41,445 nucleotides of DNA, taken from assembly GCF_016903815.1 (NCBI RefSeq), contig NZ_CP069975.1; one strand, written 5' to 3'. Of the stretch, positions 30,452 to 33,769 are shown piece after piece; within the stretch, counting starts at the first letter, position 1, and each line of letters starts with the position of its first letter. Source of the DNA: Escherichia coli (GTDB lineage Bacteria; Pseudomonadota; Gammaproteobacteria; Enterobacterales; Enterobacteriaceae). The notes beneath the pieces were generated by a model, which was not told where the DNA came from, ran no database searches, and saw only the letters and a list, made by a program, of their open reading frames with translations. A program made the translations under genes and the position numbers.

Positions 30452-31349
30452 GCACTGGAAAAACATTACTATTTATAAACTTTCTCGTGAGGCGGATCTG
30501 ACCGACTTAGAAGATAAAAAGAAAATGCTCCTTTTCACGCCATGCGGTAGTCAGGATATGGCCAAGTTCGGTTTTGTATCTCCATTTGGTGATAATTCCG
30601 AAGTTATCGCTATGCATGGAAATGGTTTTATCCTTGTTGAAGCAAAGCGCGAAACAAAAATTCTTCCCCCGCCGGTTATCCAGCGAGCTATTCAAGAAAA
30701 AATTGAAAAACTTGAGCAAGAACAAGCGCGTAAACTGAAGAAAACAGAGAAGGACTCCCTGAAAGACGAAGTTCTGCATTCTCTTCTGCCACGGGCTTTT
30801 TCAAAGTTTTCTGTTATCCAGGCGATCTACGACGGTTCAACTAAACGTATCTATATCAATGCCAGCGCGCGGCAGGCAGAGGATATGCTCGCGCTTATGC
30901 GTAAGTCTCTGGGTTCTCTTCCTGTTGTTCCCCTGAGTGTTGAAAATCCCATTGAATTAACGCTGACCGACTGGGTACGTGATGGTAGTGCTCCACAGGG
31001 ATTTCAAATGGGGGATGCGGCAGAACTCAAGGCAGTGCTTGAGGATGGCGGTATTGCCCGAGTGAAAAAGCAGGATTTGGGAAGCGATGAAATTTCCACA
31101 CACCTGGAAGCTGGCAAGCTCGTTACTAAGTTGGCACTCGACTGGCAGAACCGCATTAAATTTACACTGGACCATAACTTCAGCCTTACCAGCGTCAAAT
31201 TTGCGGATGAATTGCTTGAGCAGAACTCTGATATTGATAGTGAAGATGTTGCGCAGCGACTGGACGCAGATTTCTTCCTGTTGACCAGTGAAATTTCGTG
31301 CCTGGTTGATGCTCTGGTAAATGCCCTTGGTGGAGAGGCTAAGCAGTGA
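30444..31349 (+). CDS. hrdC: Recombination-associated protein RdgC homologue (P1 HrdC-like)
   Basis: Translation from ATG 30444 ([16 protein letters not shown]...[15 protein letters not shown]...[26 protein letters not shown]...[13 protein letters not shown]) closely resembles enterobacterial RdgC as I recall it. Confidence 0.85.
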
Positions 31350-33769
31350 AAGAGCTGTGCTATGGATCTGTTTGCAGTGGAATTGAAGCCGCGAGTATTG
31401 CCTGGGAACCGTTGGGTATGCGTCCGGCGTGGTTTGCTGAAATCGAGCCTTTTCCATCTGCCGTTCTTGCGCACCGCTGGCCCCATGTCGCCAACCTTGG
31501 CGACATGACAAAACTTGCCAAAAAAGTCCTGGCTGGGGAAATCGAATCCCCTGATGTGCTCGTCGGGGGTACGCCTTGTCAGGCATTCAGTATCGCGGGC
31601 TTACGTGGTGGGCTTGATGATGAACGCGGCGCGCTAACTTTGAAGTATGTGGAGCTTGCAAATGCAATTGACGACAAACGGTCTGAGTCCTTCCTCAAAC
31701 CGACAGTTATCGTCTGGGAAAATGTCCCAGGAGTCCTGTCATCGGCAGATAACGCCTTCGGATGTTTCCTTGCCGGATTGGCTGGAGAAGATGCGCCATT
31801 TGAACCAGGTGATCGACCTGAATCAGGAAAAAGTAACGCGTTCTGGCGGTGGGATGGCAAAACCGGTTGCCATGCTCCAAAGTGGCCGCAGTGTGGTTGT
31901 ATTTATGGACCGCAGCGAAAGGTGGCCTGGAGAATCCTTGATGCCCAATACTTCGGAGTGGCACAACGACGCCGACGCGTGTTTGTTGTCGCAAGTGCTC
32001 GAACAGACCTCGATCCCGCAACGGTACTTTTTGAGTTCGAAGGCGTGCGCCGGGATATTGCGCCGAGCAGAGGCGAGGGGAAGGAAGTTGCCGGAAATGT
32101 TGGAAATGGCATTAAAAGCGGGAGCCATTGGGATAACCCTGTAAATCCTCACCCGACACTTAACCAGTCACACAATACTGGTGGGATTGGTGCAAGTAAC
32201 CAAGAGATTTTTGCGCAGCGAGGCAGCGGACTTGTGTATTGCATGGCGCATGGGCAAGGGGGGGCAGAAATAAAAAATGATGGGACATCACCTACTCTTA
32301 CTTGTAATCATGAAGCTCCAATTGTGTTTTCTTGCAAGAAAGCTATTGCGTTTACAAGCAAAAATTATGGGCAGGATGCGGGTGTTGAGATTTCCCCAAC
32401 TTTACGAGCTGGTAACTCTGCTAATAGCAATCAAAACGCGGGATGCCCACCAGCTGTTGCGTATTCGCTACAACATGCACAAATTGGGCGAAAAGATGAT
32501 GCTGGACCGCAGGGTAAAGGGTGGCAAAAAGAGATAAGTTTTACTCTTGATTCCCGCGCAACAGCTGACGCCGTTGCGTTATCTTTTTGGGGGCAGGAAA
32601 GTATTGAAAAAGGCGAATTAGGTGAGAATGGTTACTTACCTCATATGATGAGCGTTCGCCGTCTGACTCCTGTCGAATGTGAAAGGCTGCAAGGTTTTCC
32701 TGATGGACATACGTTGATTCCAACGGGAAAGCGTAAGAAAGTTACTTCAGATGAACTTATATACCTTCGCAATCACGATCCTGATTTAAGTGAAGAAGAG
32801 GCCGCCATGCTTGCAGCTGACGGACCTCGTTACAAAGCGATCGGCAATAGTATGGCGATACCAGTAATGCGCTGGATTGGCGAGCGGATTACCAAGGCTG
32901 CATGTCGGCAGAAAGAAGGAAGTGAAACAAAAGAGCGAAAAGTTAAACCAGCGGCAGAATTCGAACGGTCCATATTCAAATGGGCTGGTGGAAAATTTGG
33001 TGTTCTGGAACAAATCTTTCGCTATTTGCCAGAAGGGAAGCGCCTGATTGAACCTTTCGTTGGTGGCGGAGCTGTCTTCATGAATGCCGGATACCAGGAA
33101 AATCTGCTAAATGATGTGAATGCTGACCTGATTAACTTTTACAAGACTCTGCAACGCGAGGCGCATTCACTTATCACTCTGGCACATCGTTTCTTCCAGG
33201 ACTACAACACGCAGGAAGGATACCTGGCAGTACGGAATGCGTTTAACAAACAAGTCTATGATGATTTACATCGCGCAGCGGCGTTTTTGTTCCTGAACCG
33301 ACATTGTTTTAACGGATTGACGCGTTACAACCAAGCCGGTGAGTTCAATGTCGGTTATGGGAAGTATAAAACTCCGTATTTCCCATTGCAGGAGATGGAA
33401 GCCTTCCTTGGTGCGGAAGGGCGTTCTGAGTTTGTATGTGGTGATTTTGCTGCGGTGATTGAAGCTGCCGGAGAAGGAGATGTCATCTTTTGCGATCCGC
33501 CGTATGAACCGCTCCCAAATACAGAGGGATTCACGAACTATTCCGGTCATGACTTTAAGTTTGAAGAGCAAAAACGCCTGGTGTCTCTGTTGACGGATGC
33601 TCATCGCCGAGGTGCAAAGGTTCTCATTACTAACAGTGGCGCGCCAAACATCAGAGAACTTTATCAGGACAGTGGCTTCAGAGTGGAACCTCTTTTTGCC
33701 AGACGTTCTGTGTCTTGTAAGGGGGACACTCGAGGTGTTGCTCATGACGTTATAGCAATATTGCTCTAA
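31346..33769 (+). CDS. dmt: Bifunctional DNA methyltransferase Dmt: N-terminal C5-cytosine MTase fused to C-terminal Dam-like N6-adenine MTase
   Basis: 807-aa ORF with GTG start overlapping the hrdC stop (GTGA). C5-MTase motifs [18 protein letters not shown]-terminal part [13 protein letters not shown]...[11 protein letters not shown]...FCDPPYEP aligns with E. coli Dam motifs. Confidence 0.9.

Follow-up and report, generated by a model that had tools for sequence, protein, structure and literature searches.

The gene at positions 31346-33769 of a 41,445-nucleotide (nt) stretch of Escherichia coli DNA (contig NZ_CP069975.1, assembly GCF_016903815.1; the whole stretch is referred to as the window) is very probably dmt of a P1-like (Punavirus) phage-plasmid, in an allele of the 'SJ46 type'. 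This grade is given to the explanation as a whole, including the function and regulation proposed below. By its sequence, the protein consists of an N-terminal phage-type C5-cytosine methyltransferase (MTase), a short charged linker and a C-terminal Dam-family MTase acting on N6-adenine in GATC. A sequence-only reading of the stretch had proposed a C5-cytosine and Dam-type fusion in a single polypeptide, and this was confirmed by Pfam, NCBIfam and the positions of the motifs in the open reading frame (ORF) at 31346-33769. Both catalytic motif sets, as that reading had also stated, are intact, with PCQ and ENV of the cytosine half and DPPY of the adenine half all present. The Dcm-like/Dam fusion is already known and has been in GenBank since the annotation of the P1 genome, and what its Dam activity does in packaging is textbook knowledge; it is no discovery, because the P1 and P7 records already annotate a bifunctional dmt. 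The P1 record reads 'bifunctional DNA methyltransferase; methylates DNA at N6 adenine in GATC sequences and perhaps at C5 cytosine', and the P7 record carries the same bifunctional annotation.

Identity of dmt and its cytosine half

The uhr-hrdC-dmt-Oban region showed 97-98% identity to P1, P7, SJ46, RCS47 and relatives by megablast, and the gene order is that of P1-family dmt loci, with uhr, hrdC and dmt behind a C1 operator and then the ban operator. The dmt gene is 100% identical to the gene of WP_089634610.1 on pMB9880_2, a plasmid from an E. coli bloodstream isolate, for which the RefSeq name is 'Dam family ... methyltransferase' only, with the C5 part unnamed. The window protein and SJ46 Dmt are of equal length and 97% identical. 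When both were aligned with the P1 and P7 proteins, the identity of window Dmt to P1 and P7 was 93% or higher except in a variable segment at amino acids (aa) 241-436, and the invariant columns of the four-protein alignment spanned essentially all residues outside that segment. In PLSDB, 497 of 72,556 plasmids bear dmt. The full variable segment of the window was found in 14 of these approximately 497 plasmids and about 79% of the segment in 36 more; the window allele is a minority type among plasmid dmt alleles. The gene and its parts outside the variable segment are as follows.

31346-33769, plus strand: dmt, with GTG start, TAA stop and 807 aa, from the ORF and homology
31346-32065, plus strand: C5-MTase catalytic core, motifs I-VIII, aa 1-240; codon of Cys78 at 31577-31579
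32654-32890, plus strand: C5-MTase motifs IX-X, aa 437-515, with GNSMAIPV; AlphaFold2 (AF2) predicted local distance difference test (pLDDT) about 90
32891-32962, plus strand: Lys/Glu-rich inter-domain linker, aa 516-539 (24 aa), between the end of C5 homology and the start of the Dam alignment
32963-33766, plus strand: Dam-family (D12 class) N6-adenine MTase domain, aa 540-807; DPPY codons at 33494-33505

The C5 motifs occur in canonical order, namely I at aa 10 (CSGIE), IV at 77 (PCQ), VI at 125 (ENV), VIII at 207 (QRRRR), IX at 438 (RRLTPVE) and X at 500 (GNS). The C5 superfamily was recognized by PF00145 in two stretches (E = 2.5e-36) and by the NCBIfam model TIGR00675 on the N-terminal half (112 against a cut-off of 100.65). 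The earlier label 'Dcm-type' stands at this superfamily level and fails beyond it: the E. coli Dcm model NF007772 scored 20.3 bits, and a Dcm ortholog was rejected because that score is far below the cut-off of 710. Residues P77, C78, Q79, E125, N126, Q207, R209 and R211 do not vary among 130 diverse relatives (about 55% identical), and AF2 modelling of the C5 half from a 130-sequence alignment gave pLDDT above 90 for the catalytic core, aa 1-240. With every catalytic motif kept, the half is most likely an active C5-methylase. Such an enzyme would pre-methylate progeny DNA at one or more cytosine-containing sites, allowing it to survive Type II restriction in the next host; the anti-restriction role suggested by the sequence-only reading is plausible for this half.

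It is quite unlikely that the C5 half is instead catalytically dead or vestigial and merely extends the Dam enzyme for DNA binding or scaffolding. A dead enzyme would fit the lack of any report of C5 methylation by P1, for which the record has no more than 'perhaps', the naming of the Dam part alone in routine annotation, and the unique G74W substitution beside the catalytic loop of laboratory P1. The window allele, however, has all six motifs and a family-typical Gly at residue 74. The invariance of the catalytic residues across the 130 relatives, the abundance of stand-alone enzymes of the same family and the strong conservation of the modules in the variable region likewise speak for activity.

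The substitution itself appears to be a peculiarity of the laboratory phage. Trp74 ('VLVWGTPCQ') is unique to laboratory P1 (AF234172, AF234173 and NC_005856), the residue being Gly, Ala or Cys in the remaining 276 family members. Codon 74 of P1 is at L001:2766-2768 (AF234172), and its counterpart in the window, 31565-31567, encodes Gly. G74W could be a C5-half lesion acquired by P1 during propagation on Mcr+ K-12 and might explain why C5 methylation by P1 stayed at 'perhaps'. Laboratory P1 may have hidden a cassette-type C5 activity through this substitution, and the reference P1 may be a poor C5 model.

In long dmt alleles (1013 and 1095 aa), 341 aa are inserted in frame between GGTP (Pro77) and CQAFS (Cys78); the alleles sampled are L005:532-1554 and L006 (plasmids NZ_CP149169.1 and NZ_CP103610.1). 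The insertion starts with Cys and ends with His-Asn, which is followed by the catalytic Cys78. It contains LAGLIDADG motifs, and Pfam recognized LAGLIDADG_3 (E = 1.7e-8), with Hint_2 at threshold. These features identify it as a predicted canonical intein. It is present in 133 of about 497 dmt plasmids (27%), always in dmt, and 128 of these plasmids carry it at 99% identity or more, across alleles whose variable segments differ; it also occurs in phages RCS47 and Ro157c2YLVW and in one 'P1' record. The dmt gene of the window is free of the intein, GGTP-CQAFS being uninterrupted and the empty site lying between 31576 and 31577. The C5 half is under constraint, and the fact that the intein has homed to the exact position of the catalytic Cys, as it has in 133 plasmid alleles, is counted as support.

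The variable segment and the wider C5-methylase family

The variable segment (aa 241-436, 196 aa) lies between C5 motifs VIII and IX and is the sole stretch that diverges from P1 and P7; the window/SJ46, P1 and P7 types differ there in full or in part. C5-methylases have their target-recognising region at this place, and the 196-aa segment would accordingly set the C5 specificity of Dmt. Among annotated alleles and database clusters, dmt alleles range from 672 to 882 aa with length differences confined to this segment; motifs VIII and IX are 231 aa apart in the window allele and 96 aa apart in P7. The segment appears to be built of four recombination-delimited modules, A-B-C1-C2, each with an 'xTL' core as in target-recognising domains (TRDs), and four spaced (P/F)TL cores are found in it. 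The module borders were set by inspection and by local-alignment breakpoints, which clustered at aa 297, 327, 376-380 and 435-437.

32066-32236, plus strand: module A, aa 241-297; breakpoint at aa 297; in 37 of 160 diverse relatives, with a nearly invariant consensus
32237-32326, plus strand: module B, aa 298-327; the sole module of the window set in P7 Dam; paralogous to C2 (hhalign, 96.9%)
32327-32473, plus strand: module C1, aa 328-376; core beginning SPTLRAGNS; breakpoints at aa 327 and 376; in 63 of 160 relatives
32474-32653, plus strand: module C2 plus a poorly conserved tail, aa 377-436; in 38 of 160 relatives; paralogous to F (98.7%)

The known alleles combine these and further modules in the following arrangements.

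Window and SJ46 (807 aa): A-B-C1-C2
P7 (672 aa): B alone of the window set
P1 (754 aa): H-D-D2-G
862-aa allele: A-D-D2-E-C1-C2
D6-like alleles: A-B-F
Citrobacter homologue (882 aa): A-B-G-C1-F plus one more

The GC content at third codon positions drops from 0.45-0.48 in the core and the Dam part to 0.27-0.33 in modules B, C1 and C2. Comparison of profiles showed modules B, C2 and F to be paralogues (96.9-98.7%) and linked C1 weakly to G. Every module family is more conserved than the catalytic scaffold.

An exhaustive search found 4,539 clusters (50% identity) matching the C5 half at E < 1e-30. Most are stand-alone phage-type C5-methylases and some are fused to a D12 Dam. In two further proteins of the same C5 family (P0151 and P0244), the C-terminal fusion partner is an NPPY-type adenine methylase instead of a D12 Dam; fusions of C5 and N6-adenine methylases arose more than once, because some carry the NPPY type. 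When hidden Markov models of ten modules were applied to 160 diverse family members, 86 module arrangements in permuted orders were recognized. Across the family, motifs VIII and IX are separated by a median of 263 aa. The length of the variable region correlated only weakly with the number of recognized modules (Spearman 0.24), so the ten modules cover part of the repertoire and a single recognized module is not to be equated with a single TRD.

A refinement of the C5 part, which leaves the identity of the gene intact, is that the half is multispecific, with A, B, C1 and C2 each an independent TRD serving one catalytic centre, as in the methylases of SPR, phi3T, rho11s and SPbeta. Alleles would then differ in the set of restriction systems that they evade. 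Tandem TRDs are documented in the multispecific C5-MTases of Bacillus phages (PMC8936443; PMC12707154). The catalytic core of SPbeta MtbP, an enzyme with two known specificities, is related to the window C5 half (E = 4e-10). MtbP has one 'xTL' core per TRD, to be compared with the four spaced (P/F)TL cores of the window segment, and the profile of module F, a paralogue of B and C2, aligned to one MtbP TRD core with 79.6% probability. The independent recurrence of the modules in permuted order and the 231 aa between motifs VIII and IX, as against 96 aa in the B-only P7 protein, point in the same direction. On the other side, specificity has been determined for no member of the Dmt family, and the modules are only 30-60 aa long, so that some could be linkers or portions of a single larger TRD. 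The ten modules also explain little of the length variation in the family, and AF2 was uninformative on the segment. On balance, multispecificity is a serious possibility that falls somewhat short of an even chance.

A broader proposal is advanced more tentatively still. The cytosine half of Dmt may belong to a very large family of proteobacterial phage C5-methylases with interchangeable target-recognising cassettes, in which the window allele would methylate up to four motifs and shuffling would provide a broad-spectrum counter-defence against Type II restriction. If true, this family would be the Gram-negative and far larger-scale counterpart of the Bacillus phage multispecific methylases, with cassettes shuffled between P1-like, D6-like and numerous other phages. 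In clinical E. coli and Salmonella, P1-like phage-plasmids are common, and some dmt plasmids carry resistance genes. If the segment does consist of shuffled specificity cassettes, this would help to explain how the element crosses restriction barriers between strains, and the cassettes would form a natural toolbox of C5-methylase specificities.

Several observations weigh against the explanation of Dmt given here. The literature searched contained no experiment showing C5 methylation by a P1-family Dmt, and the P1 record itself says 'perhaps'. C5-methylated DNA would be attacked by McrBC-type systems in some hosts, and any benefit of C5 methylation is host-dependent for that reason. The AF2 model of the C5 half left the segment unmodelled (pLDDT 33-52 at aa 240-435), and searches with the variable segment gave only chance-level matches in Pfam (E = 0.17) and among PDB sequences (E = 1.3). 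Profile comparison detected no similarity of modules A, D and E to known TRDs. Self-BLAST of the window segment revealed no internal repeat, the paralogy being visible at profile level only. Finally, the role of HrdC and the tight linkage of hrdC and dmt are left without explanation. The literature searched also yielded no description of the C5 specificity of Dmt, of a mosaic variable region or of a dmt intein.

The Dam half and the repressor-controlled operon

The C-terminal half matched PF02086 at aa 546-779 (E = 5.3e-57, 193.9 bits against a cut-off of 22) and TIGR00571 over profile positions 3-265 of 267 (251.7 against a cut-off of 114.85). Its Dam motifs are FVGGG at aa 571 and DPPY at aa 717, and aa 540-805 align end to end with E. 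coli Dam crystal-structure chains (E = 5e-58). The counterparts of E. coli Dam Lys9, Asn120, Leu122 and Arg124, the residues that read GATC in Dam-DNA structures, are identical in the window Dam half; Tyr119 is replaced by Phe and Pro134 by Gly. The Dam half would methylate GATC on replicating phage DNA, an activity established for P1 and expected of the window allele by homology. The packaging site pac presumably lies outside the window, going by P1 gene order. According to a 2025 review (PMC12707154), which cites Sternberg and Coulby (1990), P1 packaging needs GATC methylation at pac, which makes dmt essential in Dam- hosts. Because cleavage of P1 pac needs GATC methylation, the Dam half would free the phage from dependence on host Dam.

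Within dmt, a late-promoter-like palindrome was identified.

32739-32747, plus strand: palindrome AAGTTACTT, equivalent to 'LPdam2' predicted in the P7 record; the downstream hexamer TGAACT is a weak -10

The 9-bp palindrome AAGTNACTT has six copies in the window versus 0.58 expected, at 3113, 6197, 15551, 18669, 23014 and 32739. Several AAGTNACTT copies are followed 4 nt later by a -10-like hexamer (TACAAT or TAAAAT), as expected for P1 late promoters. A late transcript from the AAGTTACTT box at 32739 might give dmt a second product, a Dam-only protein starting at Met488, Met503 or Met508, in which case the fusion would not be obligatory for pac methylation. The over-representation of the box, the position of the dmt copy where the P7 record predicts LPdam2 and an AGAGG run 5-6 nt upstream of Met488 agree with such a product. 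The poor -10 formed by TGAACT, the lack of such a promoter in the P1 record and the lack of a match at the box in a generic sigma-70 scan argue against it, and a two-product dmt is considered unlikely.

The operon from which the fusion protein would be expressed, and the operators at its two ends, comprise the following elements.

30079-30095, plus strand: C1 operator Odmt (formerly Op68), ATTGCTCTAATAAATAT, with one mismatch to the consensus, at the annotated P1 Odmt position
30095-30124, plus strand: promoter Pdmt, TTGTTT - 18 nt - TACCAT, predicted by homology to P1 Pdmt (65161-65190 in the P1 record)
30167-30451, plus strand: uhr, operon gene 1, 94 aa, matching P1 uhr; phrog_2213, E = 8e-64
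30444-31349, plus strand: hrdC, an RdgC-family protein of 301 aa, ortholog of P1 hrdC; PF04381, E = 6e-98 (328 bits)
33760-33787, strand not assigned: divalent C1 operator Oban a/b (formerly Op72), with a perfect match at 33760-33776 (plus strand) and an inverted match with two mismatches at 33771-33787 (minus strand); from P1 annotation

In the whole window, five matches to the C1 operator with at most three mismatches were found versus 0.2 expected. Odmt overlaps the -35 of the operon promoter, as annotated in P1. With the promoter covered in this way, Dmt would not be produced in the lysogen, and its synthesis would begin upon induction or infection, as homology to P1 suggests. The hrdC and dmt genes are induced together during lytic growth (bioRxiv 10.64898/2025.12.28.696737), and both were non-essential in a normal Dam+ host in a genome-wide CRISPR interference screen (PMC10695390). 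A comparison of lysogen and cured-host methylomes, which had been proposed as a check, would probably show no Dmt marks, because the operon is repressor-controlled. The generic sigma-70 scan recovered neither Pdmt nor Pban, both being weak matches.

The three genes are closely packed. The uhr stop and hrdC start overlap by 8 nt (ATGTTTAA); the start of hrdC is most likely the ATG at 30444, giving 301 aa as in P1 hrdC, and not the mechanically listed TTG at 30330. The hrdC product scored 378.6 bits with the RdgC equivalog model NF001462 of NCBIfam (cut-off 330). The dmt start was correctly seen in the sequence-only reading as a GTG overlapping the stop of the rdgC homologue: in 'GTGA', GTG at 31346-31348 and TGA at 31347-31349 overlap by 4 nt. 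A Shine-Dalgarno-like GGAGAGG at 31332-31338 precedes the GTG by 7 nt. The proposed co-expression of dmt with the RdgC homologue holds in the sense of a shared operon with gene overlaps (8 nt and 4 nt), and uhr, hrdC and dmt are probably translationally coupled. The last dmt codons were likewise rightly placed in a repressor operator, since the final three lie inside the 17/17 C1 consensus match at 33760-33776. Oban sits across the dmt stop codon and controls the downstream ban operon, the same annotation being found in P1.

The pairing of rdgC and dmt, including the overlap of stop and start, recurs in D6-like phage-plasmids and in more distant phage-plasmid-like contigs, where the fusions are only about 59% identical (L007, L008, L012 and L013); the neighbouring genes and the replication and partition systems of these contigs are different. 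Because the pairing is kept in these distant relatives and in unrelated replicons, rdgC-dmt is a conserved cassette.

The sequence-only reading had also joined the methylase and the RdgC homologue in a replication-timing module and had taken the GATC cluster of oriR as a Dam target.

27735-27828, strand not assigned: oriR GATC cluster with six GATC; context, outside dmt

The count of six GATC is correct, and the stretch aligns to the part of the annotated P1 oriR that contains the Dam sites and DnaA box; the P1 record annotates five Dam sites and a DnaA box. As a target, oriR does need GATC methylation, but host Dam, not Dmt, is expected to act there in the prophage state, because the uhr-hrdC-dmt operon is repressor-controlled. 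For this reason a role in replication timing is unlikely, and a module of the Dmt fusion and HrdC acting on the six-GATC oriR is very improbable. In its favour are the homology of the GATC cluster to the five annotated P1 Dam sites and the fact that RdgC-family proteins are DNA binders. Against it, the operon lies behind a C1 operator and would be silent while oriR drives plasmid replication, host Dam being sufficient; neither dmt nor hrdC is essential when the host is Dam+; the step documented to depend on Dmt is the cleavage of pac; and phage-plasmids whose replicons and partition systems are unrelated retain the rdgC-dmt cassette. The timing module was therefore not sustained, and the preferred account of Dmt remains that of a lytically expressed enzyme with GATC methylation at pac and probable C5 pre-methylation of progeny DNA. 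The RepA iterons of the window oriR (27560-27730) are unrelated in sequence to those of P1 (L009:1189-1292), whereas the GATC and DnaA-box part is conserved, and a plasmid with an identical dmt encodes a 'RepB family' initiator. The incompatibility type of the element differs from that of P1, because the iterons are unrelated and the initiator is of the 'RepB family'.

Neighbouring features and comparison with known systems

Downstream of dmt, as in P1, tRNA-Asn(GTT) and tRNA-Thr(TGT) are found at 34445-34598, and a further tRNA with a CAT anticodon is present at 36226-36301. A search of 29900-36500 against Rfam at gathering threshold returned three tRNAs only. The equivalent of the P1 'dicF-like region' (about 33884-33985) gave no Rfam DicF match at gathering threshold; a terminator-like hairpin lies at 33950-33972 within this region, downstream of dmt. 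Elsewhere in the window, three GATC in 23 bp (14590, 14603 and 14609) stand directly upstream of a C1 operator with one mismatch at 14625-14641, and 14590-14641 could be a methylation-sensitive, repressor-controlled promoter. A tail-fibre gene (ORF 128-2713, minus strand) contains a tandem array at 371-1961, with 5.3 copies of 300-nt units encoding 100-aa repeats and 98% matches. This array is common to many P1-like plasmids, not to the best phage matches, and its copy number appears to vary between records.

The closest known systems are the Dmt proteins of the P1 group. P1 Dmt (AAQ14041; gene dmt, formerly dam) is encoded at the same locus, Odmt-uhr-hrdC-dmt-Oban, with the same GTGA overlap and the operator over the stop codon. 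It has the same domain order and a near-identical C5 core, motifs IX-X, linker and Dam domain. It differs in its length of 754 aa, in its H-D-D2-G modules, none of which is in common with the A-B-C1-C2 of the window, and in the G74W substitution beside motif IV in laboratory P1, where the window has Gly. The Dmt of Salmonella phage SJ46 (AMR60040) and WP_089634610.1 of pMB9880_2 represent the same 807-aa A-B-C1-C2 allele, SJ46 Dmt differing from the window protein by a few substitutions only. P7 Dam (AAQ07538) has the same locus, the same bifunctional annotation and module B in common; it differs in being 672 aa long, with B alone of the defined modules and 96 aa between motifs VIII and IX.

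Similarity to the two E. coli enzymes is of a more general kind. E. coli Dam (PDB 2g1p, 4rtj and others) aligns over its full length and has FxGxG and DPPY in common with the window domain. Identity is about 45%, and the window domain, unlike E. coli Dam, is fused to a C5-MTase and phage-regulated. E. coli Dcm (CCWGG) belongs to the same superfamily (PF00145 and TIGR00675), but the window protein is no ortholog of it (NF007772), and the motif I context and variable region are unrelated.

The Bacillus phage MTases M.SPRI, M.Phi3TI, M.Rho11sI and SPbeta MtbP are likewise phage-borne C5-MTases with an oversized region between motifs VIII and IX and one 'xTL' core per unit, although identity is only about 23%. 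Unlike these enzymes, Dmt carries a fused Dam domain, and its gene is linked to rdgC. The Dmt family also has a much larger repertoire of modules than the Bacillus enzymes, shuffled across thousands of proteobacterial phage enzymes.

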